A stretch of 40,911 bases of DNA from an uncultured Candidatus Saccharibacteria bacterium (GTDB taxonomy: Bacteria; Patescibacteriota; Minisyncoccia; 2-02-FULL-40-12; IGHO2-12-FULL-4). A program made the position numbers and the translations under genes. Position 1 is the first letter of the stretch, and each line of letters opens with the position of its first letter. Positions 6,130 through 39,606 of the stretch are shown piece by piece. The DNA lies in contig CAYZNJ010000002.1 in the NCBI GenBank assembly GCA_964479745.1, forward strand, positions 1-40,911, in the 5' to 3' direction. The notes below the pieces were generated by a model that saw nothing but the letters and a program-made list of their open reading frames with translations, searched no databases and was not told the DNA's origin.

Positions 6130-9100
6130 TTATTTTTTGATCCCTAGCCAAATTTTCTTTTGCGGCGCCAGTTCAAACTCTTTTTGAATGTCAAAAACTT
6201 TATCGCCTTCCGCATGAGCCAAAGAAAAATCTTTCAGCAAGGCATTCTTTTTTATAAATTCTTCCCAACTCGCCACTGCATTTTTAAGCTCCCCGTCTTC
6301 AGTATGCCACTGGCAAAAAACTTTTTCGTTAAAGCGGTAACCTGCTTCTTTTCTCATATCCTGAACCTGCCGAAGCAACTCCCTGGCCCAGCCCTCTTGA
6401 AGCAGTTCTAAGGTCAACCTGTCATCAATAGTAATTTCTTCTTCCTGTTTCGGATCGTATTTTAAGTTTTTTACGTTCAGTTCGTCTTTAATCAATGTTT
6501 CAAGTTCTTCCGCCAATTTTTCGCTTCTCTTTACAACCGCGCTAGCCAAAGGCTGTCTGACTTTGATTTGTTTGTTTTTTCTGTAAGCCAAGCCGAGAGC
6601 GACAAATTTCCTGACTTCTTCCATGTCTTGGATAAGTTTATAATTTATAGTTTTTAGTTTATAGTCCTTTGAAGATGGGTAGTTGTGAAAATGAACGCTC
6701 TCGGTCACAGCCGACGCACCTTTGTGGAGGTCATGGTGAAGTTTTTCGGCAATAAAAGGCGTAAAAGGCGCAATAATTTTTGCAATTTCCAGCAACAAAA
6801 ACCTTAACAAAGCCAAAGATTCTTTAAGAGACTCTTCCGACTCCGGCCTTTGGAACTTAATTCTTGACCTTCTCAACCACCATTTGGAAAAATCCTCTGT
6901 GACAAAACTTTCAATTGCCCGCGTAGCGGTAGTCGGATCATATTCATCCATAGATTTGGCAACGACTTCGGTTGTTTGGTTCAAACGGCTAAAAATCCAC
7001 TGATCCAGCAGGCTTGCTGGTTTAGTTTTGTGGAAATTAACCGTAAAATTTTTGTTATCCAGATTATACAATTCAAAAAACCTGAATGAGTTCCATAAAA
7101 TCATAACAAAACCCCGCAAACGCAAAGCCACTTCATCTAAAGAGAAGAGTTTAGTCTCGCCCGGATTATTTACCGAGTAAAAGTACCAGCGCACCGCGTC
7201 AACGCCGAATTTATCCATCACCATCCAAGGATCAACCACATTGCCCTTGGACTTAGACATCTTTTGCCCTTTTTCGTCTAAAACATGGCTGTAAGAAAGC
7301 ACATTTTTGTAAGCCGGGCCTTCGCCAAGCAAAGTTGAGACAGCTAGCAAGGTGTAAAACCAGCCCCGGGTCTGGTCTATAGCTTCGGCAATAAAATCTG
7401 CCGGAAATGCCGACCCAATCTTATTTCTATTTTCAAACGGATAATGCCATTGGGCGTAAGGCATGGCGCCAGAATCAAACCAGACATCGGCCACTTCTTT
7501 AATTCTCTGCATCTTGCCCTTGCAACTGGGACAACTTAAAAACACTTCGTCAATATAAGGACGGTGCGGATTTGCCCGGCCGCTTTCATCCCAAGGCAAG
7601 TTTTTAAGCTCCGCTTTATAAAATTTGCCTTTTTGGGGATACAGGTCTCTTTGTTCGTTGTTAACCACCCTAAGTAATTTTTCATCCGGCCAGCCGAACA
7701 AACTGCCGCTAAGCACCGCCAGCGGATCGCCATGGCTGACAATCAAAATATTTTTGCCTTCATGCTTTTTGTCTGTCTCCAGCATGAAGTTAATCATCCT
7801 CTTTTGAACATCGCCCCAGCTTTCACCGTCGCCGAATTTGTAATCCAAACTGGTAACAGGTTTTGGATGCTGTGCCAAGCAAAAAGATTCGCTCCTGCCC
7901 TCGCAAATACTTCCATGGCTTATTTCGCGCAGTCTTTCGTCAAAGTAAATTTTTGCGCCGGTAGACTTACTCACGATTTCCGCCGTTTCTTTGGTCCTTA
8001 AGAATGGAGAGGAGTAAATAGCATCTACTCCGTCTTTTTTCAATTTCATCGCCTCCCGTTCAACTTCTTTTCTTCCTTCGTCAGCAAGAGGGTATTTGTC
8101 ATTTTCCAGCTTGGTGTTTATTATCTTGTCAGAGTTCTTGACGCTAAAGCCGTGGCGCATAAAAAAATAGTTGTTTTTCTTTCGCCAGCGGTGTTTCTCT
8201 AAGTCTTCAAAGGAACCGACAACCTGCTGATGGCCGTTGGCGCATTCCCAAATAGGCAAAGGGGTGCCCCAGTATCTCTCTCTTGAAATCGCCCAATCCT
8301 TTACTCCCCTCAACCACTCGCCAAATCTGCCCTCTTTTAAATGCTCCGGATACCAATTAACTTTCTGGTTGTTTTTTATAAGTTTCTTGTCCAGCTTTGA
8401 CATGCCGATAAACCACGAGTCAGTGGCATAGTACAAAAGAGGCGTTCCACACCGCCAGCAAAAAGGATAATCATGCTCATATTTTTCTTCTTTAAACAGC
8501 AACCCTTTTGACTTCAAATAGTCTAAGATCCTAGCTTCAGTTTCCGGGTCTTTAACAAGTCTGCCGGCTAGTTCTGAAACGTCTTGAGTAAATTTGCCAG
8601 TTTGGTCCACGGTGTGGTGGCGAGGCAATCCAATTTTCAAGCCTAGATTGTAGTCGTCCTCGCCGTACATCACCGCCGTATGCACCACGCCTGTACCGTC
8701 TTCCGTAGTCACAAAATCCGCCGGATAAATTTTGTAAGATTTTTCCGACTTTAATTTTGGTATCTCAAAAAGAGACTCGTATTCCAAGCCAATAAGGTCT
8801 TTGCCACTAACGCTATGAACCCGTTCCACCGTATGGCCCTCAAAAACTTTGTTAACTAGATCTTCTGCAACTATCAAAAGCTCTTTTATTCCGTCTACTC
8901 TCACGGCGGCATATTTTATTTTTTCCCCGACAGCCAAAGCTACATTGCCAGGCAAAGTCCAGGGGGTTGTCGTCCAAGATAAAATATAAAAATCTTGAAC
9001 CGGAGCGAGCACCTCTTTTGAAGCTGGTCGGCGACAAGTCCGACCCAAAAAAGAGGCGCTTGCGGAGGTTAATTTAAATTTTATAAATACGGAACCTTCT

Positions 9101-9693
9101 GTGACGCTTTTGTAACCTTGCGCCACTTCATGGCTGGACAAAGTCGTACCGCAACGAGTGCAAAACGGCACAACTTTGTGTCCTTTGAAAAGCATTTTTT
9201 TATCCCAAACTTTTTTCAAAATCCACCAGAGAGTTTCTATGTAATTTGGGTCGTAGGTGATATAAGGATTTTTAAGATCTAGCCAAAAACCAATGCGTTT
9301 AGTAAACCGCTCCCACTCTTCTTTGTACTTCCAGACGCTCTCTTTCGCCTGCTTGTTGAACTTAGCAATTCCGTATTCCTCAATTTCTTTTTTTGATTTT
9401 AGGCCGAGGGATTTTTCAACCTCAATTTCCACCGGCAAGCCATGGGTGTCCCAACCGGACTTTCTTTCAACATAAAAACCCCGCATTGTTTTATAGCGGC
9501 AGAACAGATCCTTAAAAACTCGGCCGATAAGATGGTGAATTGCCGGTTTAGCATTGGCCGTCGGCGGACCTTCAAAGAAAATAAAAGGTTTGGCTTTTTT
9601 CCGCCGTTCCAGACTTTTTTCAAAAACTTTATTCTTCTCCCAAAAGTCTAAAACTTCTTCTTCAATTTTTTTAAAATTAAATTCGTCTGGCAT
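6130..9693 (-). CDS. ileS: Isoleucine--tRNA ligase carrying a nested histidine-phosphatase-like domain
   Basis: 1187 aa. IleRS motifs: PPTANAKPAIHHLIG (HIGH region), WTTTPWTLPGN (CP1 editing), GTGVVHTA, WAISRERYWGTPLPIW, KMSKSKGN. About 205 extra residues (aa ~502-707) between PLPIWEC.. and ..HRPYIDEV carry RHGFSVKN, SSPFLRTKETA and ILIVSHGD. Confidence 0.95.
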   Translation of the reverse strand: MPDEFNFKKIEEEVLDFWEKNKVFEKSLERRKKAKPFIFFEGPPTANAKPAIHHLIGRVFKDLFCRYKTMRGFYVERKSGWDTHGLPVEIEVEKSLGLKSKKEIEEYGIAKFNKQAKESVWKYKEEWERFTKRIGFWLDLKNPYITYDPNYIETLWWILKKVWDKKMLFKGHKVVPFCTRCGTTLSSHEVAQGYKSVTEGSVFIKFKLTSASASFLGRTCRRPASKEVLAPVQDFYILSWTTTPWTLPGNVALAVGEKIKYAAVRVDGIKELLIVAEDLVNKVFEGHTVERVHSVSGKDLIGLEYESLFEIPKLKSEKSYKIYPADFVTTEDGTGVVHTAVMYGEDDYNLGLKIGLPRHHTVDQTGKFTQDVSELAGRLVKDPETEARILDYLKSKGLLFKEEKYEHDYPFCWRCGTPLLYYATDSWFIGMSKLDKKLIKNNQKVNWYPEHLKEGRFGEWLRGVKDWAISRERYWGTPLPIWECANGHQQVVGSFEDLEKHRWRKKNNYFFMRHGFSVKNSDKIINTKLENDKYPLADEGRKEVEREAMKLKKDGVDAIYSSPFLRTKETAEIVSKSTGAKIYFDERLREISHGSICEGRSESFCLAQHPKPVTSLDYKFGDGESWGDVQKRMINFMLETDKKHEGKNILIVSHGDPLAVLSGSLFGWPDEKLLRVVNNEQRDLYPQKGKFYKAELKNLPWDESGRANPHRPYIDEVFLSCPSCKGKMQRIKEVADVWFDSGAMPYAQWHYPFENRNKIGSAFPADFIAEAIDQTRGWFYTLLAVSTLLGEGPAYKNVLSYSHVLDEKGQKMSKSKGNVVDPWMVMDKFGVDAVRWYFYSVNNPGETKLFSLDEVALRLRGFVMILWNSFRFFELYNLDNKNFTVNFHKTKPASLLDQWIFSRLNQTTEVVAKSMDEYDPTTATRAIESFVTEDFSKWWLRRSRIKFQRPESEESLKESLALLRFLLLEIAKIIAPFTPFIAEKLHHDLHKGASAVTESVHFHNYPSSKDYKLKTINYKLIQDMEEVRKFVALGLAYRKNKQIKVRQPLASAVVKRSEKLAEELETLIKDELNVKNLKYDPKQEEEITIDDRLTLELLQEGWARELLRQVQDMRKEAGYRFNEKVFCQWHTEDGELKNAVASWEEFIKKNALLKDFSLAHAEGDKVFDIQKEFELAPQKKIWLGIKK
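7573..8190 (-). other. Histidine phosphatase (PGAM-like) superfamily domain inserted in-frame in ileS
   Basis: R513-H514-G515-x4-N520 is encoded at 8149-8157 (CGC CAC GGC on the minus strand). SSPFLRTKETA and LREISHGSICEG follow, and the second catalytic His is in IVSHGD (CAT at 7732-7734). There are no intein-like termini. Confidence 0.75.
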
Positions 9694-17958: not shown

Positions 17959-18022
17959 GGTTATCAACACTTGGAGATTGATTTTAGTTTTCTGTCAGTC
18001 TCCGCTGTGTGATACAATTAAG

Positions 18023-18868
18023 ATGATGTTTAGACAACTAAACAAAAAGTTAAATCTGCTTCCGCTTTCCTTTGCACTTATTACAATTCCCTGCACCGAC
18101 AGCGCCGGCATTGGTGAATGCGTTTCCGGGTTATACAACTGGAGCCTCGCGATTGTGGGGATAGTTGCTTTTGTCCAGATAATTTATGCCGGCTGGCTGT
18201 ATTTGAGTGCGGCGGGCAACACTAGCAAAACCGGCGACGCAATGAAAAAAATATCCAATGCTGTTTTGGGCATTGTTTTGCTTTTCTCTTCTTACTTAAT
18301 TCTGAATACCATCAATCCTGATTTGGTGGGAGAAAGCTTCGGCCTACCTGACCTTAAAAAAGATAAGATTGAGGACATAGATTACAGCGGCACAAGCACG
18401 ACGTCAAATACCACCACGACAATCCTGCAATCAAGCACAACTACGCTAGCGAGTGGAACAACAACGACAATAAACCCCAACACTCCAGACTGGTCTAGCA
18501 TAACCCCTGCCACGCCATTGGCTGTTAGCTTCCGCGATTATATCCAGCTTGACGACATACTAGGTCATATTGGTCCCGGCACTGATGCTGAAGTTTGTTT
18601 GGTCGGTTCCGGATTTGCACCAGGAATGGGTTTGTATGTATCGGGCTTAGGTACTTTTCTCATTACTCCTCACACCACCACTAAAGCCACACTACATCTC
18701 AACGCTTCCGATAACAGATTCGCTCCAGGTTGGCAAAATATAACGCACAGCGGGGGTGAAGTGGCCTACTTTCAAAGGGGAGAATACACAACAGACTTTA
18801 TACTTATCTATCTAGATCTAGAAAACGGCCTAGGCACAGTACGTCCGCAAAAACCCTGCAATAATTGA
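18023..18868 (+). CDS. Pilin-module protein: N-terminal VirB2/TrbC-like two-helix module, Thr-rich linker, C-terminal domain
   Basis: The ORF track starts at TTG 17978. ATG-ATG at 18023 gives a better signal-like N-terminus, MMFRQLNKKLNLLPLSFALITIPC. Module: ECVSGLYNWSLAIVGIVAFVQIIYAGWLYLSAAGNTSKTGDAMKKISNAVLGIVLLFSSYLILNTINP. Linker: GTSTTSNTTTTILQSSTTTLASGTTTT. Confidence 0.7.
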   Translation: MMFRQLNKKLNLLPLSFALITIPCTDSAGIGECVSGLYNWSLAIVGIVAFVQIIYAGWLYLSAAGNTSKTGDAMKKISNAVLGIVLLFSSYLILNTINPDLVGESFGLPDLKKDKIEDIDYSGTSTTSNTTTTILQSSTTTLASGTTTTINPNTPDWSSITPATPLAVSFRDYIQLDDILGHIGPGTDAEVCLVGSGFAPGMGLYVSGLGTFLITPHTTTKATLHLNASDNRFAPGWQNITHSGGEVAYFQRGEYTTDFILIYLDLENGLGTVRPQKPCNN

Positions 18869-18906
18869 ATTTAAACGGAAAGTATGTCAACATTCTAAAA
18901 TCAATA

Positions 18907-19452
18907 ATGCATAAAGGTTTCTGGACCAAAAGACCCCAACAAGAAAAAAAACCGAAAGCCAACCTGCAAATCAGAGCTCCTCAAGTGAGAGTTATAGACG
19001 AAGCAAGCGGCCAGCTTGGCATAATGGACACCTCGTCCGCCTTAAAGTTAGCCCAAGAAAAAGGGCTTGATTTGATTGAAATCAACCCAAACAGCAGCCC
19101 CCCTATTGCCAAAATCATGGATTATGGTAAATATATGTATCGCAAAGAGAAGGGCAATAAAGGCAAAGAACAAAAGAAAGTCGGTTCCCAGGAGACAAAA
19201 ACAGTAAGAATAGGCCTAAAAACAGGAGAACACGACCTACAGGTCAAATCAGCTTTAGCTGACAAATTTCTGGAAAAAAAGAACAAAGTAAAAGTTGAGA
19301 TCTTTTTAAGAGGCCGAGAAAAAGCCTTCAGAAATATGGCCAGAGAAAAAATTACTCAATTTTTAACTTACATCACCCAGCCCTATATTACCGAAGACAC
19401 TCTAAAGTCTACACCAACCGGTTTTTCAGTAGTGCTGAGACCGGAAAAGTAA
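18907..19452 (+). CDS. infC: Translation initiation factor IF-3
   Basis: IRAPQVRVIDEASGQLGIM...LDLIEINPNSSPPIAKIMDYGKYMYRKEK aligns with IF-3 N-domain and linker; the C-domain is ..VKVEIFLRGRE... ATG at 18907 gives an N-terminal length like that of E. coli IF-3. The track start is TTG 18865, so the start is uncertain; IF-3 genes often use unusual starts. Confidence 0.88.
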   Translation: MHKGFWTKRPQQEKKPKANLQIRAPQVRVIDEASGQLGIMDTSSALKLAQEKGLDLIEINPNSSPPIAKIMDYGKYMYRKEKGNKGKEQKKVGSQETKTVRIGLKTGEHDLQVKSALADKFLEKKNKVKVEIFLRGREKAFRNMAREKITQFLTYITQPYITEDTLKSTPTGFSVVLRPEK

Positions 19453-28484: not shown

Positions 28485-29051
28485 ACCCTTACTCTTTCTG
28501 TTGTAACTTTCCTTGATTTGGTATTGGTTGTTTTTTTGATTTTGTTTTTAGTTTTTTTAATAGATTCTTTGGTTAAGGGGCATGACTCGCCGACAAGCAA
28601 AAAAACAATCAAACAGCTGATAAAAATAATTTCAAAACACAAACCGGAAGCAATAAACTTCTATGACTTGGGTTGCGGCCGCGGAACAGTCGCCTTAGCG
28701 ATAAAAAAAGAACTGCCGCAACTGGAAGTGCGCGGCATAGATTATAACGCTGTCAGAATTTTCTTTGCCAAGTTAAAATCCTTTTTTTTGAGAAGAAAAG
28801 TTGACTTCAAAAAACAAGACTTATTTAAAACAGACTTGCAAAAAGCTGATATAGTCTATACCTACTTATGGTACGACTTGATGCCGCCGCTTGAGAAAAA
28901 ACTGCACAGTGAACTAAAAAGCGGCGCCATAGTAATTACCAACACCTCAAAATTTCCGAACTTACAGCCTGTTGAGATAGTCGCCACTCACAAAAAAGTC
29001 CCAAAACTGTCTGATTTTGAGACATTATTTGTCTATAAGAAAGAACAGTAA
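28479..29051 (+). CDS. Class I SAM-dependent methyltransferase with N-terminal TM helix
   Basis: 190 aa. TM FLDLVLVVFLILFLVFLI. Motif I: FYDLGCGRGTVALAI. Post-I acidic residue in VRGIDYN. Confidence 0.7.
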   Translation: MNTLTLSVVTFLDLVLVVFLILFLVFLIDSLVKGHDSPTSKKTIKQLIKIISKHKPEAINFYDLGCGRGTVALAIKKELPQLEVRGIDYNAVRIFFAKLKSFFLRRKVDFKKQDLFKTDLQKADIVYTYLWYDLMPPLEKKLHSELKSGAIVITNTSKFPNLQPVEIVATHKKVPKLSDFETLFVYKKEQ

Positions 29052-29053
29052 TG

Positions 29054-29137
29054 TGTCCTCGAGAGGATTTGAACCTCTAATCCCTTGCGGGAACAGCGTC
29101 CTAAGCGCTGCGCGTATGCCAGTTCCGCCACGAGGAC
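29054..29137 (-). tRNA. tRNA-Leu(UAG): tRNA-Leu, anticodon UAG (type II, long variable arm)
   Basis: The minus strand reads GTCCTCGTGGCGGAACTGGCATACGCGCAGCGCTTAGGACGCTGTTCCCGCAAGGGATTAGAGGTTCAAATCCTCTCGAGGACA. Acceptor GTCCTCG/CGAGGAC, anticodon stem CAGCG/CGCTG with loop CT-TAG-GA, variable arm CCCGCAAGGG, T-arm AGAGG-TTCAAAT-CCTCT. CCA is not encoded. It starts 2 nt after the convergent methyltransferase stop. Confidence 0.92.
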
Positions 29138-29186
29138 ATTTGAATATACTTATAAAAAATATAAACCAAAGCCAGCCTAAAAACAA

Positions 29187-29212
29187 CGAGCACATAACAA
29201 GTTATGTGCTCG
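29187..29212 (-). terminator. Rho-independent terminator after the pilin operon
   Basis: The 12-bp stem CGAGCACATAAC / GTTATGTGCTCG is followed on the minus strand by TTGTTTTT. Confidence 0.7.
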
Positions 29213-29236
29213 GTTTTGAAATTACTTTAAAAGTTT

Positions 29237-29611
29237 CTACCTGTATGAACCGAAGAATGATCTGGTCACTACGCCAGCCAAGGTTTGCAGAATTACACCG
29301 ACGGCTAAAACCACCAAAGCTCCAATAATTCCGTTCCAAACAATCTTTTTGGCCTTTTCAACAGCCTCATCGTTGTGTCCGGCCGCAATCCATCTGATAC
29401 CGCCGTAAACAATAAAGATAACGGCAATAACAATTGAAATGATAATCAAAAATCTGGCGGCTCCCTCAATCAAACCTTGAATTTCGGTCAAAGTAACCGG
29501 TGCGCCAGTCAAAGTAGCCGTGGGATTAGATATTGTAGCAAAGGCGATTGCCGGAAGCAAAACTGTCAAAGCCGGTATAATATACTTAACAGAAGCTTTT
29601 AACTTATTCAT
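29237..29611 (-). CDS. Stand-alone VirB2/TrbC-like pilin-module protein (candidate major subunit)
   Basis: Signal-like KYIIPALTVLLPAIAFA, then two hydrophobic helices around a polar loop: FLIIISIVIAVIFIVYGGIRWIAAGHNDEAVEKAKKIVWNGIIGALVVLAVGVIL. The track start is GTG 29617; ATG 29611 is preceded by GAGAGGAGG with 5-nt spacing, a strong SD. Confidence 0.8.
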   Translation of the reverse strand: MNKLKASVKYIIPALTVLLPAIAFATISNPTATLTGAPVTLTEIQGLIEGAARFLIIISIVIAVIFIVYGGIRWIAAGHNDEAVEKAKKIVWNGIIGALVVLAVGVILQTLAGVVTRSFFGSYR

Positions 29612-29630
29612 AGACACCTCCTCTCATAGT

Positions 29631-29706
29631 TAGTTGCTAGTTTCTAGTGTCTAGTTGCTAGTTTAAATTCTTAAAACTAGAAGCTAGAAACTGAAAACTA
29701 GAAGCT
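29631..29706. promoter_or_regulatory. CTAG-rich imperfect palindrome between two pilin-operon genes
   Basis: The left half has 4 x CTAGTT-type units (CTAG at 29637, 29644, 29651, 29658). The right half has 3 x AACTAG units (CTAG at 29677, 29684, 29698) plus a degenerate CTGA. The inner arms CTAGTTGCTAGTTT / AAACTAGAAGCTAG match 12 of 14 around the loop AAATTCTTA. Confidence 0.6.
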
Positions 29707-29709
29707 GGT

Positions 29710-30405
29710 TTAGCACACCAGCGGAATAAATGAAAAATCAGTTATTCCGACTGCGTTGGCTACAGTGGCAATTATAACATAGACGCTAAAAATAACCAAA
29801 ATACCCCAAATAACCGTTTTAAAGTTAGCCTTGGCCTCATCGTGTTTTTTAGGGTTATCGCCGGCGGCCATAAATCTAAATCCGGCCAAAACAAGAAAAA
29901 TGAAGGGTAAAAGCATGGCAATTCGGATCAGCCAGCAGGCAAAACCGATGACAATTCCGGTAACATCCTGCGCGCTAAAATTCTCCCCCGGAAAGTTGCC
30001 TAGTGGATTCTCGCCGCCGCCAGCCGGTTTGGTTGTAGTGGTAGTTGTTCTTGAACCCCCGCCTTGAGCGGGTTTACAGATATTGTCCGCGCAGTTGTCA
30101 GAAACACAGTCGTTTGCGTAAACGCATAACGCGCCGTCCAAGTTGCCTTCCGGAGCCACACAAACGCCGTCAAGACAACTTTCATTTTTGTTTGCGCTTT
30201 TGTTGCAGTCAATGGCTTCTTTGTCCGTTCTGCATTGAACACAAGTATTGCCTGAACACAAAAGACCGGAGACGCAGTCGCTGGCTTTAGAACAAGACTC
30301 ACCGAACTTAGATACCGCTAAACTTTGTCTGCCGGTAAAAATAAAAACACTAAAGAAAGCGACTAAGAATATAATTAAAAACAGTATTTTTTTATTTCCT
30401 GCCAT
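29710..30405 (-). CDS. Cys-rich secreted domain, poly-Thr linker, C-terminal pilin module
   Basis: 231 aa with signal ILFLIIFLVAFFSVFIF. Repeated C..DC.SG.C..N.C units are present (SCSKASDCVSGLLCSGNTCVQC; ALCVYANDCVSDNCADNICKP). Linker GGGSRTTTTTTKPAGGG. Module LPFIFLVLAGFRFMAAGDNPKKHDEAKANFKTVIWGILVIFSVYVII. Confidence 0.75.
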   Translation of the reverse strand: MAGNKKILFLIIFLVAFFSVFIFTGRQSLAVSKFGESCSKASDCVSGLLCSGNTCVQCRTDKEAIDCNKSANKNESCLDGVCVAPEGNLDGALCVYANDCVSDNCADNICKPAQGGGSRTTTTTTKPAGGGENPLGNFPGENFSAQDVTGIVIGFACWLIRIAMLLPFIFLVLAGFRFMAAGDNPKKHDEAKANFKTVIWGILVIFSVYVIIATVANAVGITDFSFIPLVC

Positions 30406-30436
30406 TATGGTTGACTCTAATTATAACCTACCGTTC

Positions 30437-31549
30437 TTATTTTCCAAGATTAAGGATGCTCTCAATTAGAGCGATAAATCCCTCGCCGATAAAAATAACC
30501 GCCAAACCAATTACCGCCCAAAGAAGTATTTTTCTGCCTTGACCGAATTTTTCCGGATCTCCTTGAGAACCCATCATAGTAATACCGGCAAAAAGAATCA
30601 TAATCACGGCAATCGGAATAGCCAGCCAGAAAATCCAGTTTAACAAAGCATCAATCAATTCCCTAAAGTCTTTCGCCGATAATGGATTTTTGAATTCCAA
30701 GGAAACTATTTTAGTGCTAGTTGAGGCAACTGCTCCGCCAACAGTTAGATCGCTTGACCATAAACACAAGCCGCCAGTTGTTCGGGCGCAATTATCCGGT
30801 CCGCCATTCGGCAAACGAATCTTGAAAGCGTATTTCTGGCTGCCGGCAACTTTCCAATCAACCGTAGCTGTCAAAGGCGGACTGCCGGCGGTTGGAAAAG
30901 AAGAGTTTATCGTCGTTTCCAGCCTGTTGCCCAAGTCTTTGCCGCCCCGCCAAATTTCAAAACCGAAACTCGTACCATTGCATCCCGGATTATTGCCTTT
31001 GACTTTCAGAGATACTGTGTCGCCGACACTGGCGCTGGATTTGTTCCATTCCGCGTTGGAAAAACTGCAAGATCCGCCAACCGTAGTCATGTCGAACCTG
31101 TTGGCAACAGTCCACTGTTTGGTCGTGCGCGTTTCCCTGCTGCCCAAAGCGACTTCGGGAACGCTGCTGCTCCAGCAATAAAACACCGGCCAGTAGATAT
31201 TTTTCTGGCCCGGCGAGCCGGAGTTAAATTCAAATTCAATGTCCGGTCCTTCTCCTTTTGCCAAGTACTCAAGATTTGTTGCGTCTCCACTCTTTGCATG
31301 AGTCATTGTGTGGAAGAGGCTATAACCGGAACTCCCTCCGCAAGATTCGTCCGAACCGGAAAAACCGGCGACCAGAGCAACATTTGCCTGCGGCTCCAGT
31401 CCGCCGGAAGGTTCTTGGCCGGCAAAAGGCCCGTCTAAGTAGCGCGCTTCAAAAATTATGTTTTCTTGGGCGTAAGCAAAACCGCCCAACAAAAAAGCAA
31501 AAAATACGATGAAAAAAAACTTATTAAATTTGGGGCGGCAGTGCAACAT
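30437..31549 (-). CDS. Secreted beta-rich domain with C-terminal pilin module
   Basis: The track start is TTG 31594. ATG 31549 gives the signal peptide MLHCRPKFNKFFFIVFFAFLLGGFAYAQ. C-terminal module: LLNWIFWLAIPIAVIMILFAGITMMGSQGDPEKFGQGRKILLWAVIGLAVIFIGEGFI. It overlaps the upstream gene end by 26 nt (71 nt if the TTG start is used). Confidence 0.75.
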   Translation of the reverse strand: MLHCRPKFNKFFFIVFFAFLLGGFAYAQENIIFEARYLDGPFAGQEPSGGLEPQANVALVAGFSGSDESCGGSSGYSLFHTMTHAKSGDATNLEYLAKGEGPDIEFEFNSGSPGQKNIYWPVFYCWSSSVPEVALGSRETRTTKQWTVANRFDMTTVGGSCSFSNAEWNKSSASVGDTVSLKVKGNNPGCNGTSFGFEIWRGGKDLGNRLETTINSSFPTAGSPPLTATVDWKVAGSQKYAFKIRLPNGGPDNCARTTGGLCLWSSDLTVGGAVASTSTKIVSLEFKNPLSAKDFRELIDALLNWIFWLAIPIAVIMILFAGITMMGSQGDPEKFGQGRKILLWAVIGLAVIFIGEGFIALIESILNLGK

Positions 31550-32168
31550 TTTGTTTTTTATTTTTAAGCCAGCGAAATAGAAAAACCAATGCAACTACAA
31601 TCAATAAACCCAGCAAGTTAGTAAGTGAAAATATTCTGCTAAGTAAGGTTGGCGGGGTTGGCTTAGGAGTTATAGTTGTAGTCGGCGCAACTTTGCAGTC
31701 GTTGGGACAATTCTGGTTGTTTTCTCCTGTGTCTGAATTACAAATTCCATCTTCGTTGCAAACCGGTCCGCCGGGAGCCAGATCTATCTCCAAAAGTTTG
31801 ACATTGTCCGGGTTGTAGAAATTTGCTGTTTTGGCATTGGCAAAATATGGAGCTTCAACAGTTACCTTGCCAGTCTTGGGATAGAATTCAAAGTCCGCCA
31901 AAACCGCGCCCCGCACCGACAAAATTTCTCCTTTATAAACCGGGGTTCCCGACTCCGGTTTATCGTACTCTTTGGCTATTAAGTCAAAGGGGAATGAAAA
32001 ATCACGGTCTTTAATTAACTTACTCTGCTGGTCAAGGTAAAGATGAAAAGAATAAGTAAAGCCGGCATCCTGAAATCCAACACTGTCTGACAAAGAGTTG
32101 CCAACCAAACCGAAAACTCCCAGAAAAATTATAAAAAAAGCCGAGATTACATTTTTTTTGAAAGTCAT
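31524..32168 (-). CDS. Secreted protein with small Cys-knot-like motif, Thr/Pro linker and C-terminal TM anchor
   Basis: 214 aa with signal AFFIIFLGVFGLVGNSLS. Motif GGPVCNEDGICNSDTGENNQNCPNDC. Linker APTTTITPKPTPPT. Anchor LLGLLIVVALVFLF followed by basic RWLKNKKQ. The ATG lies 1 nt after the upstream stop. Confidence 0.7.
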   Translation of the reverse strand: MTFKKNVISAFFIIFLGVFGLVGNSLSDSVGFQDAGFTYSFHLYLDQQSKLIKDRDFSFPFDLIAKEYDKPESGTPVYKGEILSVRGAVLADFEFYPKTGKVTVEAPYFANAKTANFYNPDNVKLLEIDLAPGGPVCNEDGICNSDTGENNQNCPNDCKVAPTTTITPKPTPPTLLSRIFSLTNLLGLLIVVALVFLFRWLKNKKQNVALPPQI

Positions 32169-32169
32169 A

Positions 32170-33510
32170 TTAAAATCCCAGGTTATTCAAACAATAATTT
32201 ATATAGGTCGCTCCTTGTTTGGTTTCATACATTCCAGTGTTACAAACTGTGTGTTGGGGGTTGTCGTAAGGACATTCCCATCTCTTTTTCGTTCCGCCAC
32301 CGCAGCTTTGCTCACTTGCACAGTCACTGCTAGCCGCACAGTTGCCCGGACCAGCATTATATCCGGCGTAAATATTGCGCGGTTCCGATCCGCAAGTACC
32401 AGCCGCCAGTGATCTGATAAACGCGGCTCCGATACAGATGCTTTTATCGGCATTTGCAGGATTAGTAAGCCAAGAAGAAGTAATATTCTCTGTTACGCCG
32501 CAAGCCGACTTAAACATATTAGCAGTTTCCGGACGAAGCTGCATCAGCCCGTAAGAAGAAGATGTGCCCGCTCTGATATTACAGTCCGATTCAATAACCA
32601 TAAAAGCCTTGAGAACCGTCGCTGAAGCGGCGCCTCCGGCGTAACGATTTATTGAAGCTGAATATTGTGAACAAGAGGAGTTGCCACAGCCACCAGGTCT
32701 TCTTTGTCCGTTGCAAAGATTAAAAGTGCTGTAATTAGTTCCCTGAAACATACAAGCCAAAGTTCCAAGCGTAGTAGTCGTGGTGGGTCTTACAGTTGTT
32801 GTGGTTGTTGAGGGTTTTGTAGTCGTGGTAGTAGTTGGCGGCTTGGTTGTGGTCGTAGAAGCTGGAGACAAAGTCGTGGTAGTAGAACCCGGCCGGGCAG
32901 TCGTTGTGGTCGTACCGGGTCTGACGGTAGTTGTGGTTGAACCGCCACGAACGGTTGTTGTAGTAGAACTGGGTTGAGTAGTTGTCGTAGAAGAAGTAGT
33001 TGTGGAACCTGATGCCATGGTGGTTGAGGTAGTTGTTTCGCTTGTCTCCGTCGTTGTTGTCGTAGTTTCAGTTGTTGTGGTGGTGGCCACCGAAACAACT
33101 TCTTTACATTCAAGTTTCCACCAATCTTCGGCAACGTTCTGGTCGCCGGCGATGGTGCGCAAAGTTGTGTTGACTATCAGCCAAGCCAGAAAAATTATCA
33201 TCAGACCGTAAGCGGTCGTCCGAAAAATATTCTGCCCGGCTTGAACTCGCGAAGGTATTCCCCCGCCCAGCAAAATAGAAAATCCGGCGTAAATGAAAAA
33301 CAAAGCCGCCAGCGCCGGCACCAGATAAAACAAAACAAAATCGCTGATATTTTTCCCCAAAACCAAAAGGTCGCAAGTGGTGCAAGCCGGCTGTCCGGTC
33401 CTGCCGCAAGGCACGAGAGGATCAAGAGCCAAGGCGTTAGTAGCCCAAACGGAAAAAAGGGTTAGAGTCAGAAGAAAAACTAAAAATAATTTGTTGCGTA
33501 TTATATGCAT
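32170..33510 (-). CDS. Pilin module, ~110-aa poly-Thr linker, C-terminal GH23/SLT-type lytic transglycosylase domain
   Basis: 446 aa with signal LFLVFLLTLTLFSVWATNALA. Module: LVPCGRTGQPACTTCDLL...LVPALAALFFIYAGFSILLGGGIPSRVQAGQNIFRTTAYGLMIIFLAWLIV. Linker: ATTTTTETTTTTTE...TTTTTKPSTTTTTVRPTTTT. SLT motifs: VIESDCN (Glu-Ser), YGLMQL, AGYNAGPG. Confidence 0.8.
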   Translation of the reverse strand: MHIIRNKLFLVFLLTLTLFSVWATNALALDPLVPCGRTGQPACTTCDLLVLGKNISDFVLFYLVPALAALFFIYAGFSILLGGGIPSRVQAGQNIFRTTAYGLMIIFLAWLIVNTTLRTIAGDQNVAEDWWKLECKEVVSVATTTTTETTTTTTETSETTTSTTMASGSTTTSSTTTTQPSSTTTTVRGGSTTTTVRPGTTTTTARPGSTTTTLSPASTTTTKPPTTTTTTKPSTTTTTVRPTTTTTLGTLACMFQGTNYSTFNLCNGQRRPGGCGNSSCSQYSASINRYAGGAASATVLKAFMVIESDCNIRAGTSSSYGLMQLRPETANMFKSACGVTENITSSWLTNPANADKSICIGAAFIRSLAAGTCGSEPRNIYAGYNAGPGNCAASSDCASEQSCGGGTKKRWECPYDNPQHTVCNTGMYETKQGATYINYCLNNLGF

Positions 33511-33776: not shown

Positions 33777-35099
33777 TTACCGCCGCTGCATCAAAAGCGT
33801 AATTTTATTTTCGGCTGTCCGCAGAGCTTCAGGAATTGACTCGCGCGCAAAATTAACATCTTCAATCATATCCGCCAAAATATTTTCAATAACTAAACTG
33901 TCAACTTGATACCAAGACTTCGCGCTAAGCGCCTGCTTTGCAAAAACTCCCAAATCCAGATCATCTTTCTGCTGGTCTATGAGATCGCGCCTAGCTGTCG
34001 GCCTGTTGGCAGAGTTAAGATAAGGTATTACTCCCTCAACAGAACTAAGGTAAACCAAAAACTCCCAAGCTTGCTGACTGACCGGAGAAAATTTAGAAAC
34101 TGTCGGCGCCCAGTAGTTGGCATAGCTTGTTGACTGCCCCGGCTCCAGTTGCGGCATAGGAGCAACGGCAAAATTAAGTCTCGGAGCTTTTGACCGCAAT
34201 AAAGCCGTCTGATGAGAATAGTTAAACATCATGGCCGTAGCGCCTTCTTGAAAAGCGTCTATTGAATAGTGCAAGCCGTCGTTCCATGTGTAAACTCTCT
34301 TACTTGGATTGGCAAAGTCGGTATAATATTGCAGGGCTACTTGGCCTAGATCTTTGCCGTCAACAATTTTAGAAAAATCAGCGCCGGTGTGGACATCGTC
34401 AACCATCGGTACGCCGCTTTGCATCATCAAAAGAGACAAGATATCGGTTGAGCGGTTGATGTTTCTGGCTGTGCCGATAGCCGCACCGGAGCGGGATATG
34501 TTGCTATTTGAATCAGCGATAGTAATTTTCTCCACATCTTCATTAAATTCTTGCCAAGTTTGCGGCGGACGGGTAATGCCCAAATTGTTGAAAATATCTT
34601 TGTTATAATAGAGAGCCAGAGAATCAACATAAATCGGCAAAGCGTAAATATCGTTGCCAACCACTAAATCTTTTTCAGCCACATCCACAAACTGGTCACG
34701 GAAATCTTTAAGAGTAAAGAGAGGTATTTTTTGGTCGGGAATCTGCTGGGGCAAAGGAGCGATTTTGTCCTGATACTTCGCCAGCCAGTTATTTTGAATC
34801 ATAAAAATATCCGGTCCTTTGCCGGAGGCGAAAGCGTTGATTAAAGCTTTCTCGTAGTCCTCGTAACTGAACTGACGGTAAGTAATACTTACTTGGGGAT
34901 TTTTTGCCTGATAACCGCTGATGCTTTGCCGAAAAGTGTCGGTACCGTCAAAAACACCCCAAAACTGGAGTTGGGCCGGTTGTCCGCCGCCACCGCTCGG
35001 ACCAAAACCGCGGCTTAAAAAAATTATTGTTACCAAAACCAAAGTAGCAATAACTAAGCCCCCGGCAATTAGAACAAGTTTATTTTGAGATAAGTCCAT
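33777..35099 (-). CDS. Extracellular solute-binding protein (ABC-type, family 1, sugar-type), orphan
   Basis: 440 aa with N-terminal anchor LVLIAGGLVIATLVLVTIIFL. LQFWGVFDGTD...YRQFSYEDYEKALINAFASGKGPDIFMIQNNWLAKY is the typical SBP_bac_1 opening. No permease or ATPase gene is adjacent. Confidence 0.75.
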   Translation of the reverse strand: MDLSQNKLVLIAGGLVIATLVLVTIIFLSRGFGPSGGGGQPAQLQFWGVFDGTDTFRQSISGYQAKNPQVSITYRQFSYEDYEKALINAFASGKGPDIFMIQNNWLAKYQDKIAPLPQQIPDQKIPLFTLKDFRDQFVDVAEKDLVVGNDIYALPIYVDSLALYYNKDIFNNLGITRPPQTWQEFNEDVEKITIADSNSNISRSGAAIGTARNINRSTDILSLLMMQSGVPMVDDVHTGADFSKIVDGKDLGQVALQYYTDFANPSKRVYTWNDGLHYSIDAFQEGATAMMFNYSHQTALLRSKAPRLNFAVAPMPQLEPGQSTSYANYWAPTVSKFSPVSQQAWEFLVYLSSVEGVIPYLNSANRPTARRDLIDQQKDDLDLGVFAKQALSAKSWYQVDSLVIENILADMIEDVNFARESIPEALRTAENKITLLMQRR

Positions 35100-35105
35100 G
35101 AAGCG

Positions 35106-35696
35106 TTATTTCCTATAGATAAGTCCGAAATGAAAAGCGCCCGCGTCTATTTCTCTGACAAAAGACAGTCCCTGACTTTCAAAAACTGATTTTATTTCTT
35201 GAGCATCAACTCTGTTGGCGTCGGGCGGACCAACTCCGCCGCCGCCTTTTTTCCAATCAATAAAAATCAGAAGCCCGTTGGAAGTTAAAACTCTTTTCGC
35301 CTCCTGAACTATTTCTGATCTTTTGTTCGATTGAAATAATATATTTGCCAGTAAAACAATGTCTTGAGAATCATCAGCTAAGCCGGAACCACCCAAAACT
35401 TCCAGATCGGCTCTGACTGTCTGTAAGTTCTTGAAACCGCCGACTGCGGCTTTCGCTCTAACAGTTTCTAAAGCACTTTCTAAAATATCTACTGCGGTAA
35501 CTACCCCGCTTTCACCGATTTTTTGAGCTATCAGAATCGTAAAGTAGCCGGCGCCGGAGCCAAAATCAGCCACTTTCATGCCCGGCTGTAAACCAAAAGA
35601 TTCCACAATAATATCTGGACTCATAAAACCGCCACTGCCGGTGGGCAATGCAGGCATAACAAAATTTTCTGCTGTCAGCACTGCAAGACTAGGCAT
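35106..35696 (-). CDS. Class I SAM-dependent methyltransferase
   Basis: 196 aa. Motif I: KVADFGSGAGYFTILIA. Post-I: VTAVDI. Motif ..DIVLLANILFQ. Confidence 0.75.
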   Translation of the reverse strand: MPSLAVLTAENFVMPALPTGSGGFMSPDIIVESFGLQPGMKVADFGSGAGYFTILIAQKIGESGVVTAVDILESALETVRAKAAVGGFKNLQTVRADLEVLGGSGLADDSQDIVLLANILFQSNKRSEIVQEAKRVLTSNGLLIFIDWKKGGGGVGPPDANRVDAQEIKSVFESQGLSFVREIDAGAFHFGLIYRK

Positions 35697-35754: not shown

Positions 35755-38700
35755 TTAGACCACCACAACCGAAGCTACCGAGTCGCCGGGAGCGAGTTTC
35801 ATAATGCGAACGCCTTGAGTCGCCCGACCCAAAACAGAGATGCTATCCAATGAAGTTTTTATCACTTGGCCTTTTTGAGAAACCGCGATTATTTCTTTGC
35901 CTTCCGGATTTACAATATGCGCCGAGATAATCTGGCCGGTTTTGGCAGTAATTTTTGCCGTCATAATTCCCCTGCCGCCGCGATGCTGGACCTTGTAAAA
36001 TCTCAACTCGGTTCTTTTGCCGTAGCCTTTGTCCATAACCACCAATAACTTTAAGTCTTTTTCCGGAATTTCTGCCGAAACGGCTTCCATGCCGACAACT
36101 TTGGCTTCCTTTTCCAACCGAACGCCGATTACTCCAGAAGCCGCCCGCCCCATCGGCCTGACATCGCTTTCTTTAAATCTGATTGAGTTGCCGTCGGAAG
36201 TAGCTAAAACAATTTCGTCTTTACCCGAAGTGCTTCTGACCCATTTTAATTCGTCGTCTTTTTTAAGTTTGATGGCAATCAAGCCGTTGGTTCTGACTTT
36301 TTCAAAGTCAGACATGGCAACTTTTTTAACAACCCCGTTTTTGGTCGCCATGAAAAGATACATGCCTTTGCTTTGCTTGGGAATCGGCACAACTCCGGTA
36401 ACCAACTCAGTCGGTGAAATATTTAAAAAGTTGACGATTGCTTTGCCCTTTGACTGCCGGCTTGATTCCGGCACTTCGTAGCCTTTTGTCTGAAAAGCCC
36501 GTCCGGAATTGGTGAAAAATAAAATGTTGTCATGGGTATTAGCCATAAAAAATTGGCTAACAATGTCTTCCTCTTTTGTCTCCATGCCAATCAATCCTTT
36601 GCCGCCTCTTTTCTGGATTTTTAAATTCTCCGGCGCCATGCGCTTGATATAGCCGCTTTGGGTAACCATAAACAAACTGTCTTCTTCCGGCATCAGCTCT
36701 TCTTCGCCAACTTCCCTCAAAGCCGATTTCACAACTTTGGTTTTCCTCTCATCGCCGTATTTGGCTTTGAGTTGGATAAACTCTTCTTTGATAACGCCTA
36801 AAATCTTTTTGGGATGGGCCAGCAGATCCTCAAGATAAGCAATCAGGGTCTTTTTTTCTTTCAGCTCATCTTCCACTTTTTTTCTTTCCAAACCGGCCAA
36901 AGCCCGCAGTTTCATTTCCAAAATTGCCGTCGCCTGCCTTTCAGTAAAGCTGAATTTTTTCATCAGGTTTTTTAGAGCTTCCTCTTGCGAAGCTGACGCT
37001 CTGATGAGTTTGATAATGGCATCAATATGGTCAAGGGCCTCCTTTAAGCCCTCCAAGATGTGCGCTCTGTCTTTGGCTTTGCCAAGCTCAAATTGAGTGC
37101 GCCTGATAACCACATTTCGGCGATGTTCAAGAAACTTTTCCAGCGCCATTTTCAAACTTAAAGTCTGTGGCTGAATGCCGTCAACCAAAGCCAGCATGTT
37201 AACATGAAAGGTTTTCTGCAATTCGGTGTATTTAAAAAGCTGGTTAAGTATTTTTTTAGGAAAAGCATCTTGTTTTAAGTCAACCACAACCCTGATGCCG
37301 TCCTTGTCGGATTCATCACGCACGTCTTTGATGCCGTCGATTTTTTTCTCCTTGCCCGTCGCCAATTCAGCAATTTTTTGTATCAGCTCTGCTTTGTTCA
37401 CCTGATAAGGAATTTCGGTAACCACAATTTGGAAACCTTTCTTACCTTCTACTATCTCGGCTTTGGCGCGCATAATTATCGGCCCCTTGCCGCTGGCGTA
37501 GGTGTTAATAATATCTCTTTCATTGTAAATCGTGCCACCAGTGGGAAAGTCGGGACCTTTGATGAATTGCGACAACTCGGCAACATCGGCATCGGGACGG
37601 TCTATCATATAAACAAGGCCGTCTAAAACTTCGGACAAGTTATGCGGGGGGATGTTGGTTGCCATACCGACGGCAATCCCCATTGAGCCGTTGATCAAAA
37701 GATTGGGCACAACCGAAGGCAGAACCACCGGCTCTTTCCTACTGCCGTCATAATTATCAACAAAGTCAACCGTCTCTTTGTCTAAGTCGGCCAGTAAGCC
37801 CTCGGCTACACTAGATAAACGGGCTTCCGTATATCTCTGCGCGGCAGCCGGGTCGGAATCTAAACTTCCAAAATTCCCTTGTCCGTCTATCAACGGATAG
37901 CGAAGTGAAAAATCTTGGGCCATTCTGACCATAGAGTCGTAAATCGCCGCATCTCCATGCGGATGATATTTACCCATGCAATTGTGTGCAACAATACCGT
38001 TAGCCAAGAACTCATGGTCACCCTCAACTTCAATGTCGTATGTTGTTTCCGGTTTAGCATTTTCTATTTTTTCCACGTAAAGAAATCTTATATCGTTATT
38101 CGTCAGTTCATCTATAAGTCCGGAAAGAGGAGAATTAATTTTTTTTAGCTTCTCGGCAATATAAAGTTCGGTTATTTGACGAAGTCGCAAAGGTTTTTCT
38201 TGCAAATCAGATGAGTACCTTAACTTTGCGCCAGTATGATACTTGATTCCCATTCTAAATTTGCTGCCGTCCATTCCTGAATACCAACCGCCGCCAAGAT
38301 GCTGTTTTGAAAGCTCTGAAAAGATAAGTTGCCCTCCGTAAGGCAAAATGCCCCAACTAGACCAATGCCTGTAAATATTCTCTGCCTTTATCCTTTCCAG
38401 CCGATTTTGTTTATAAGTTGAAAAAAGTTTTAGTTCTTTGGCTAATTTTTGGACCTCATCTCCTCTTATCTCAAGCACTTTCCCAAAAGTATTGGCTTTA
38501 ACCGTACGTCCATTAACCATAGAAGGAGTCGTTTTTTTGTAAGTATATTTTTTGCTAAAAATACCGAGGTATTGGAGAAGTACTTGCAACTGGTTGATGA
38601 GTTTCTCCGACGAAGAAGCGTAGTTGATCACTGCTCTGTTTTTAGCCACACTTCCATCCCCGTCCAATAAACCGGAAATAAAAGCGAAGATAACACTTCG

Positions 38701-39606
38701 CGGAGCTTGAAAAATTTTGTCAGGTATAAATTTGCTGAAAGCTTTAAAACTAAGCGGTATAGAAAACTCGTTAATAAGATAATCACAAATTTCTTTTCTG
38801 TTAATTCTCAAAACATACACAATACTTAGAGACTTTCTGCCGTCTTTTAATCTTATCTCGGAACTTCTAGTTTCTATTGTTGGCACATAACCAAACTCGT
38901 GCTTAAAACATTGTTGGACTTTTGCGACTATGGGCTGCTCGCTGGACACAAAGCCAAGCCTCCTGCTTTTTCTTGAACCATAGTCAGCAGTAATCCAGCC
39001 GTCGGAAATGAGCATACCGAGAATATAGCCCAGTTCTTCGCTAAATTTTTTCTTCTTTCCTTTATAAAACGAGAGTTGAACACCGACTCTGTCAGGATAT
39101 TTAGATCTGATAGTCAGCCAGTCGCCCGCATTTAAATTTTTTGCTTCTTTCCACTGAAACTCTCCTTTGTTTGTAAAAACTTTAAATTTTTGTGAAGAAG
39201 TGGCCGTAACTGACAGGCCATTTGAAAGAGTGATTTTATTTAAAGGCTTGGGTGGCATAACAAATAGGTTTGCGACCCTTCTTATTTTATTTTGAGTATA
39301 AACTCTATCGCCTTTTTTTATATCCTTTATACGCTTAATGCCTTTCGAAGTAAGAACAAGGGTATTTTCCTCAAAACATTCGCCGACGATTCTGGCAGAC
39401 TTTACAAATTTTACGTTATGCCGAAGCCCCATTTCGTTCATCGCATACAAAATCCTCCGGTGAACCGGTTTGAGACCGTCTCTGACATCGGGCAAAGCGC
39501 GAGAAACGATAACGCTCATCGCATAAGCTAAATAAGAATCGCGCATCTCCTCGGTAATTTCCCGAGACTCAATATTGCTTTGTTTTGGTTTATTTTTTTC
39601 TTCCAC
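35755..39606 (-). CDS. gyrA: DNA gyrase subunit A, interrupted by an intein (817-aa extein plus 466-aa intein)
   Basis: Extein motifs: [34 protein letters not shown], (C)[50 protein letters not shown] (catalytic Tyr), [14 protein letters not shown], plus C-terminal beta-pinwheel repeats. Confidence 0.95.
37981..39378 (-). mobile_element. Full-length intein with LAGLIDADG homing-endonuclease domain in gyrA
   Basis: It starts with Cys77 (TGT, 39378-39376) after ..ARIVGE and ends ..GIVAHN (AAT, 37983-37981), followed by the +1 Cys of [10 protein letters not shown]. 1398 nt = 466 codons, in frame. Endonuclease motifs are [14 protein letters not shown] and [12 protein letters not shown]. Block F/G: [21 protein letters not shown]. 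Confidence 0.9.

Follow-up and report, generated by a model that had tools for sequence, protein, structure and literature searches.

A module-bearing gene array on the minus strand

The stretch of DNA analyzed here, referred to as the window, covers 40,911 nucleotides (nt) of contig CAYZNJ010000002.1 from an uncultured bacterium. We describe an array of five genes on its minus strand, g1 to g5, four of which encode a pilin-like module of PF18895, a type IV secretion system (T4SS) family, either alone or fused to other domains. A sequence-only reading of the window had proposed five tightly packed minus-strand open reading frames (ORFs) between 33510 and 29237, and all of them were found among the window ORFs with the spacing that it gave. 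The genes are g1 (32170..33510, 446 amino acids (aa)), g2 (31524..32168, 214 aa), g3 (30437..31549, 370 aa from its ATG), g4 (29710..30405, 231 aa) and g5 (29237..29611, 124 aa). A gap of 1 nt separates g1 from g2, g2 and g3 overlap by 26 nt, the g3/g4 spacer is 31 nt long, and the g4/g5 spacer measures 92 nt to a GTG or 98 nt to an ATG. Two genes have alternative starts: a TTG at 31594 would give a g3 product of 385 aa, and a GTG at 29617 would give a g5 product of 126 aa. Public gene calls list 370 aa for the g3 product (P0165) and 124 aa for the g5 product (P0045). Of the two lengths offered earlier for g3, 385 aa matches the TTG start, while 371 aa is one residue too many.

To define the shared module, we compared the window proteins with Pfam family PF18895 (T4SS_pilin), whose curated gathering cut-off is 26.6 bits. 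The products of g1 (29.4 bits), g3 (43.0 bits), g4 (27.1 bits) and g5 (37.0 bits) all score above it, as does that of a sixth gene elsewhere in the window, g6 (32.0 bits); g2 has no match to this family. Additionally, a hidden Markov model (HMM) of the module, built locally, matches only these five proteins among all window ORFs of at least 60 aa on both strands. Thus, the earlier proposal of one module common to four genes of the array and a sixth gene is borne out, and all five loop strings quoted in its support occur verbatim in the translations. A hydropathy scan found a signal-peptide-like N-terminus and two hydrophobic helices in every module protein, and the loop that joins the helices is short and mildly basic. 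The g5 product has the layout of PF18895-type proteins, namely a signal, two hydrophobic helices and a short polar loop. The family matches 88,748 cluster representatives and is very common in the candidate phyla radiation (CPR), in agreement with the earlier statement that genes annotated as T4SS pilins are frequent there.

Identity between the paralogous modules is only 21–35%, and low-complexity hydrophobic segments can mimic similarity, so a chance resemblance or annotation artefact among unrelated hydrophobic ORFs had to be considered. This is refuted by five independent Pfam matches above a curated cut-off, by a local HMM that matches nothing else in the window, and by orthologues in more than 20 species under purifying selection, and we regard its probability as practically nil.

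The module of g1 occupies aa 37–126 (33133..33402, minus strand), with the Pfam core at aa 60–114 and a local HMM E-value of 8.8e-25. That of g3 lies at the C-terminus (aa 289–370; 30440..30685, minus strand) and was located by Pfam, the local HMM and AlphaFold, and that of g4 spans aa 136–226 (29728-30000, minus strand). Predicted structures contain helical hairpins both in g5, which is the module alone, and in g3. The g5 model consists of a signal helix followed by a hairpin of residues 41–77 and 81–121 (predicted local distance difference test score (pLDDT) 74.7), and the C-terminal hairpin of the g3 model is formed by residues 295–326 and 332–369.

The fused domains, hereafter cargo, stand N-terminal of the module in g3 and g4, C-terminal of it in g1 and g6, and at both ends of a single module in proteins of three related loci (L011, L012 and L020). 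In the membrane, VirB2 and TraA have both ends outside and the loop inside. Because cargo of outside-acting types is found at either or both ends of the module, the fusions fit this same topology, and the module ends with cargo are predicted to lie outside the cell. Type IV pilins were rejected as an identity for these proteins, which have A-x-A sites of the signal peptidase I type (AFA↓T, AYA↓Q and ALA↓L), no class III prepilin-peptidase motif and two hydrophobic helices after the signal. In an alignment of g1-like proteins (A2), the hairpin is flanked by three nearly invariant cysteines ahead of its first helix and by a W...C motif after its second (aa 35, 43, 46 and 135 in the window g1). 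Disulfides across these positions could staple the outer ends of the hairpin, which would recall the head-to-tail cyclisation of VirB2/TrbC.

The sixth gene, g6 (18020..18868, plus strand), had been placed at 18023-18868 by the earlier reading. It is a solitary fusion of an N-terminal module (nt 18101-18340), a Thr-rich stalk and a C-terminal domain of ~120 aa, and is 31% identical to g1 across module and stalk. Its end overlaps the start of infC (18865-19452, plus strand) by 4 nt, and g6 may be co-transcribed with the infC-rplT housekeeping genes. On the opposite strand, 5′ of g6, lies a gene for a 777-aa surface protein with IPT/TIG domains.

Fused domains and the non-pilin gene g2

In g1, a signal peptide (aa 1–28) is followed by a short Cys-containing outer segment, the PF18895 module, a poly-Thr/Pro stalk of ~135 aa and an SLT domain. 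The stalk was delimited in the translation at aa 127–262 (32725..33132, minus strand). The SLT domain matches PF01464 with 32.9 bits against a cut-off of 21.3 (E = 5.4e-8), consistent with the lytic transglycosylase cargo named earlier, and its catalytic core covers aa 297–392 (32335..32622, minus strand) with ES, GLMQL and YNAG motifs. The translation reads VIES, GLMQL and YAGYNAGPG at these sites, which are conserved in alignment A2. Thus, the g1 domain carries the catalytic Glu-Ser, GLMQ and AYNxG motifs and is a predicted lytic transglycosylase. PF18895 and SLT occur together in ~30 database homologues of g1, some of which have He_PIG or fn3 domains between the two; in relatives, these immunoglobulin (Ig)-like domains replace the g1 stalk. 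Among 14 g1-like proteins scanned (orthologues or paralogues), all had PF18895, eight had SLT, and three had He_PIG instead of the Thr stalk.

The g3 protein is composed of a signal peptide, two Ig-like β-sandwiches, a disordered linker of 17 aa and the C-terminal module. Its cargo (aa 31–270; 30740..31459, minus strand) was assigned from AlphaFold and Foldseek. In the model, which was built on a 13-sequence alignment with a mean pLDDT of 75.7, a signal helix precedes sandwiches at 31–147 and 152–270 and a disordered linker at 272–288, and Foldseek returned solely tandem pairs of Ig or fibronectin-III domains. The "beta-rich domain" of the earlier reading therefore corresponds to these two sandwiches. 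In g4, a signal peptide, Cys-rich repeats and a short Thr linker precede the C-terminal module. The repeats hold 14 cysteines in three units of the C-x-C-x-C-x-C type and have no significant family in Pfam, where matches to Dickkopf and EB were not significant. We rejected the Dickkopf identity suggested previously for this cargo (E = 0.13, sub-threshold). The proteins of L011, L012 and L020 combine N-terminal Ig-like domains, one module and C-terminal Cys-rich repeats, and the Cys-rich unit of L020, although C-terminal of its module, resembles the N-terminal cargo of g4. The module and cargo architectures of homologues show that the module is truly fused to different cargo and that relatives retain these fusions.

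The one gene of the array that lacks a module, g2, encodes a type I membrane protein with a signal peptide, a conserved β-rich outer domain of ~110 aa, an invariant CNxDGxC...CPxDC knot, a Pro/Thr linker, one transmembrane helix and a basic Pro-rich tail. Searches of Pfam, NCBIfam and PDB sequences found nothing for this protein, and a query that joined g2 to the g3 cargo retrieved homologues of g3 alone. In 16 related loci, an orthologue of g2 separates the g1-like gene from the g3-like one.

Conservation of the array

The closest homologues of g1, g3 and g5 (75–93% identity) come from groundwater metagenomes and from metagenome-assembled genomes named Candidatus Yanofskybacteria, which places the window in Candidatus Yanofskybacteria, class Paceibacteria, within the CPR/Patescibacteria. 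The neighborhood of the array is the same in loci L001 (226 kb), L004 (283 kb), L027 (733 kb) and L028, where gyrA and the genes for an S-adenosylmethionine (SAM) methyltransferase and a solute-binding protein (SBP) lie on one side. The other flank holds VanW, hsp20, prsW, an aminoacyl-tRNA synthetase (aaRS) gene and tsaD in L001, L004 and L027; the stored sequence of L028 stops within the array and does not cover it. A scan of one genome per species with g5 as the query yielded a further 22 loci with the array, mostly labelled Yanofskybacteria, and ORF calling combined with the module HMM showed that the gene order is fixed across loci. The array is thus a chromosomal cassette, conserved in the lineage, whose site is always flanked by gyrA-methyltransferase-SBP and VanW-hsp20-prsW, and a horizontally acquired island was rejected on account of the synteny across species. 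Taken with this synteny, the tight spacing of the genes suggests a co-transcribed operon.

In the window, the SBP gene (33777..35099, minus strand; family 1, membrane-anchored, PF01547) lies directly 5′ of g1 with a spacer of 266 nt, beside the methyltransferase gene (35106-35696, minus strand). All long related loci have these two genes directly 5′ of the array, and the SBP gene has no permease gene near it. The SBP stop codon overlaps or abuts the first pilin gene in L001, L004 and L028 and is 8 nt upstream of it in L027, and the SBP gene may belong to the transcription unit of the array in relatives.

Across relatives, the first position encodes a protein of 300–530 aa with the module near the N-terminus, the second is the non-pilin gene, and the third encodes 340–725 aa with a C-terminal or central module. 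The fourth holds one to three small pilins (105–170 aa) or a Cys-rich pilin of ~225–230 aa, and the last is a pilin of 106–130 aa. Conservation of the module in relatives, which the sequence-only reading had named as a test of its proposal, was found in the same order in more than 20 related species. Module-bearing ORFs of the related loci comprised 64 short ones and 44 of at least 200 aa, counts that leave out L002, a palindromic artefact, and the duplicate L003. In L002 (ENA contig k127_2067209, 8882 bp), an assembly error has given the five-gene operon twice, as perfect inverted copies.

As L002 is the closest relative, it served as the reference for identity of the separate protein parts. 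Modules were 91% (g1), 88% (g3) and 85% (g4) identical, the mature part of g5 93%, and the SLT region of g1 (aa 263–446) 90%. The Ig-like cargo of g3 was 58% identical, the Cys-rich cargo of g4 67%, the Thr stalk of g1 50% and g2 69%. Likely orthologues of g5 in other Yanofskybacteria are ~50–89% identical to it.

These values bear on the simplest alternative to a pilin, in which the two-helix module merely tethers unrelated secreted domains to the cytoplasmic membrane, forms no polymer and has a misleading T4SS_pilin name. A membrane anchor usually varies more than the domain attached to it, whereas here the modules are 85–91% identical and the cargo 58–67%, which argues that the module is more than a passive anchor. 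Additionally, the best-conserved gene with the strongest predicted expression signals is the cargo-free g5, and every paralogue keeps its own identity and operon position in more than 20 species. A tether would account well for the long Thr or Ig stalk of g1, which is what a membrane-bound wall enzyme needs. On balance we consider plain anchoring unlikely.

Expression signals around g5

As the earlier reading had noted, g5 is last in the operon and has the strongest Shine-Dalgarno (SD) sequence, a GGAGG located 5 nt 5′ of the ATG; the SD sequences of g1 to g4 are weak or missing. A strong SD sequence precedes the terminal pilin gene in almost every locus. An intrinsic terminator with an 11-bp stem and a following T-run lies 3′ of g5 (29187..29212, minus strand), and all related loci whose downstream sequence was long enough to fold likewise have a strong terminator 3′ of the terminal pilin gene.

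The g4/g5 spacer contains an imperfect long hairpin (29637..29701, minus strand) made of CTAG-rich 7-nt repeats (period 7 in TRF). A 121-nt stretch with this hairpin folds at −33.7 kcal/mol (z = −2.6) and has no Rfam family, giving only sub-threshold matches to miRNA hairpins. Analogous hairpins occur 5′ of the terminal pilin gene in ~10 related loci, or about half (L004, L005, L009, L015, L016, L017, L019, L020 and L023 among them), and consist of species-specific short tandem repeats of unrelated sequence. They may be mRNA processing or stabilizing elements, or attenuators.

The strongest SD sequence, the highest conservation and a terminator of its own all fit g5 as a putative major subunit made in large amounts. 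In related Paceibacteria, the secreted proteins with the highest expression include PF18895 members (PMC10936435). Of the previously suggested arrangement of one major subunit and minor cargo subunits, the first part agrees with the features of g5, and display on a filament is a prediction.

Resemblance to VirB2/TrbC and a proposed assembly

The explanation toward which we lean, by a little more than even weight, is that the array encodes a heteropolymer of VirB2-like hairpin modules. The modules would have both ends outside and co-assemble, with g5 as the major subunit, the cargo-bearing paralogues as minor subunits and a T4SS as the driving machine. They would insert into the membrane in the manner of VirB2 and TraA and then join through module-module contacts. 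In such an assembly g5 would be abundant, and g1, g3 and g4 (and g6 elsewhere) would be low-copy paralogues that add functions to it. The g1 protein probably stays at the base, where the 135-aa Thr stalk would bring the SLT domain to the cell's own wall and allow it to make an opening there, the job of VirB1. For the g3 and g4 proteins, transport outward as part of a filament or stalk is more likely, and their Ig-like and Cys-rich domains, which evolve fast, could attach to the surface of a host. Since their linkers of only ~17–30 residues could not span the wall if the module remained in the membrane, the module likely leaves the membrane. The same consideration speaks against plain anchors, which could not place an adhesin beyond the wall on such linkers. 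Assembly, with a filament as its expected product, would most likely be driven by VirB4 and its partners encoded elsewhere in the genome, and g2 would be a conserved accessory or anchor protein.

Evidence for kinship with conjugative pilins comes from the family at large. Distant members pass the gathering cut-off of PF04956 (TrbC/VirB2; 27.9 bits), with 51 bits for P0178 and 84 bits for P0181, and many g5 orthologues have precomputed matches to PF04956. That some members reach this cut-off is a further point against a mere tether. When a profile of g5 orthologues was aligned by hhalign with Agrobacterium VirB2 (PDB 8cue), the helix-loop-helix was in register, with a g5 loop longer by 8 residues.

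Several results weigh against this proposal. Within the window, g3 (20.1 bits, E = 7.6e-4) and g5 (17.7 bits, E = 4.3e-3) fall below the PF04956 cut-off, and the hhalign match itself is weak (P = 0.0045, probability 7.7%). Module profile searches of PDB sequences found no solved pilin. Foldseek with the g5 model returned no VirB2 or TraA, only generic helical hairpins with nothing below E = 0.6, although such a search is not discriminating for a two-helix hairpin. The resemblance to VirB2/TrbC claimed in the sequence-only reading holds for some members of PF18895; for the window proteins, it is weak in the PF04956 scores and the profile alignment and absent from the fold search. Gene annotation found no VirB4, VirB6, VirB3, VirD4 or relaxase gene in the 40.9-kb window, as had been stated for VirB4, VirB6 and VirD4, and in relatives the 10 kb around the array are likewise free of T4SS machinery genes. 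With a promoter-like site 5′ of g4 and a small hairpin resembling a terminator where g4 ends, the five genes may not share one transcript; these are hints only, as matches to the promoter and terminator consensus occur at about the chance rate (8 where 7.3 were expected, and 9 where 7.0 were expected). To our knowledge, no such pilus has been seen in any monoderm, and bulky fusions of 25–30 kDa are without precedent in VirB2-type pili. A generic hairpin fold, the lack of a significant sequence match to solved pilins and the lack of a nearby VirB4 count in favor of plain anchors.

The top-scoring members of the family are tandem poly-module proteins, with 17 copies in 1775 aa, 11 in 1147 aa and 8 in 820 aa (among P0178–P0326), and proteins with two and three copies are encoded inside Yanofskybacteria arrays (L009:9023-9877; L024:9307-9936). 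Proteins of 2–17 tandem modules have nothing to anchor, a further argument against a simple tether. They are, on the other hand, as compatible with an oligomer that stays in the membrane as with a pilus. The hairpins would then pack side by side as a ring, sheet or channel, independent of any T4SS, and serve as a conduit or platform at contact sites, perhaps linked to uptake through the SBP. Multi-hairpin c/K subunits of A/V-type ATPases offer a parallel to proteins with up to 17 hairpins. The best Foldseek match of g5 was indeed ATP synthase subunit c, although non-significant, and this explanation would suit both the distance of the array from virB4 and the fact that, in relatives, the array is coupled to a membrane-anchored SBP gene that stands as an orphan. 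Sequence similarity to c-subunits is absent, as the hhalign control with ATP synthase subunit c gave P = 0.39, and no conserved membrane-embedded acidic residue was noted. Additionally, the family adjoins virB4 in 1,135 of 1,948 assemblies that have both, or more than half (PMC12102498), and it is essential within a T4SS cluster (PMC10633639). We consider a T4SS-independent membrane oligomer improbable.

Table S1 of PMC12102498 lists VirB4 as present in four of five genomes with this array, and none of the five has VirB4 within 10 kb of it. Because the array can lie far from virB4, surveys confined to the surroundings of virB4 would miss part of the system. A wider version of the heteropolymer proposal makes the VirB2-type hairpin of the CPR a general self-assembling display scaffold, in which a T4SS builds a heteropolymer with fused enzymes and adhesins, a pilin-SLT fusion replaces VirB1, and "polypilins" of up to 17 copies are included. 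This version is tentative, and we judge it possible but doubtful.

Other features of the window

The rest of the window is of housekeeping character, with genes for IleRS, ArgRS, a further class I aaRS, a class II aaRS, RecO, HtrA, SmpB, IF3, L20 and TsaD. Additionally, it holds genes for PrsW, Hsp20, VanW and an intein-bearing GyrA and two tRNA genes. The isoleucyl-type class I tRNA synthetase (6130-9693, minus strand, 1187 aa) has a histidine-phosphatase domain (PF00300, E = 3.6e-32, aa 510–676) between the halves of its catalytic domain. The GyrA gene (35755-39606, minus strand) carries an intein with a LAGLIDADG homing endonuclease at aa ~77–542; a GyrA intein is also present in L022, and none was found in L001, L008 or L027. 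A tRNA-Leu(TAG) gene (29053-29137, minus strand) lies directly 3′ of the g5 terminator and is overlapped by a 103-aa plus-strand ORF (29017-29328) that is probably spurious.

Relation to known systems

Pilin arrays in Patescibacteria are already published (2023, 2025), and the cargo fusions were not found in the searchable papers. PMC12102498 describes 441 arrays in 383 patescibacterial assemblies, with 2–11 pilin genes and at times one non-pilin gene between them, and reports pilin genes near virB4 in 1,135 of 1,948 assemblies. The window array fits that definition with its four module genes and the single non-pilin g2 between g1 and g3, and more than 20 relatives are alike. It further shares with the published arrays the PF18895 family, tandem divergent paralogues (~25% identity published, 21–35% here), a CPR host and a chromosomal location. 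In contrast to those arrays, it is not beside virB4, three of its four module genes are fused to SLT, Ig-like or Cys-rich cargo, and its order is fixed with g2 as a conserved partner. It also belongs to Paceibacteria, whereas the published arrays are most abundant in Microgenomatia and Saccharimonadia. In Ca. Southlakia epibionticum, the T4SS locus SEML1_0006-0019 contains a pilin array that is essential (PMC10633639). A 2025 review names these systems as the sole T4SSs of Gram-positive type that may have pili (PMC12857230). No mention of fusions or poly-module proteins was found in the available portions of PMC12102498 and PMC10633639, and the searchable literature contained none of covalent pilin cargo, a pilin-SLT fusion, a fixed order with g2 or tandem poly-module proteins.

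VirB2, TrbC and TraA (PF04956; T-pilus structures 8cue and 8exh) share with the window proteins a long signal peptide, two hydrophobic helices, a short basic loop, ends predicted outside and a weak profile similarity in the correct helix-loop-helix register, and some PF18895 members pass PF04956. The window proteins differ in scoring below the PF04956 cut-off, in a loop longer by ~8 residues and in the lack of a fold match. VirB2, TrbC and TraA, with cyclisation and a lipid-bound filament as traits on their side of the comparison, belong to diderm T4SSs, whereas the organism of the window is a monoderm. We know of no VirB2-type pilin that bears large covalently fused domains.

The SLT motifs of g1 are shared with the T4SS-associated peptidoglycan hydrolases VirB1 of Agrobacterium, PrgK of pCF10 and TraG of pIP501, and an N-terminal membrane tether is found in g1 as in the Gram-positive enzymes. 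In g1, unlike those proteins, a pilin module serves as the tether and is set apart from the enzyme by a stalk of poly-Thr or Ig type, CHAP and LytM domains are absent, and the gene lies outside a virB4 cluster. VirB1* reportedly promotes T-pilus formation, a finding attributed to Zupan and colleagues (Zupan et al., in 2007). Most Patescibacteria genomes with VirB2 are without a recognizable VirB1, according to PMC12102498, and a pilin-SLT fusion could be one way to fill the VirB1 role in such genomes.

By analogy, the nearest conceptual precedent comes from Streptococcus sanguinis, whose PilB and PilC are type IV pilins of modular build (PMC8179133, PMC9934059). There too, a functional module is grafted onto a pilin, minor subunits stand beside a major one, the host is monoderm and the cargo is of adhesion type; the pilin fold and assembly machine are unrelated, and the window proteins have signals of the signal peptidase I type rather than class III. 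Pilin-like conjugal transfer proteins of Mycoplasma integrative and conjugative elements show weak similarity as well. The NCBIfam families Mbov_0395 (~80 aa) and Mbov_0396 and MMCAP2_0566 (~306–322 aa) give weak matches to g4, g5 and g6 (E = 3.5e-6 to 1.5e-3, below curated cut-offs), and share the layout of a small pilin-like protein next to a longer one with the module near its N-terminus. These proteins, themselves uncharacterized, differ in that their genes belong to mobile elements which also encode homologues of VirB4 and VirD4.

If the heteropolymer proposal is true, the array would encode modular conjugative-type pilins, a design so far known for type IV pili only. Much of bacterial diversity belongs to the Patescibacteria, which live on the cells of a host, and a pilin array and T4SS were essential in the sole species tested. 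The operon gives concrete handles on what the pilins build and do, with predictions of which subunit is the major one, which opens the wall, and which, as the fast-evolving parts, touch the host.

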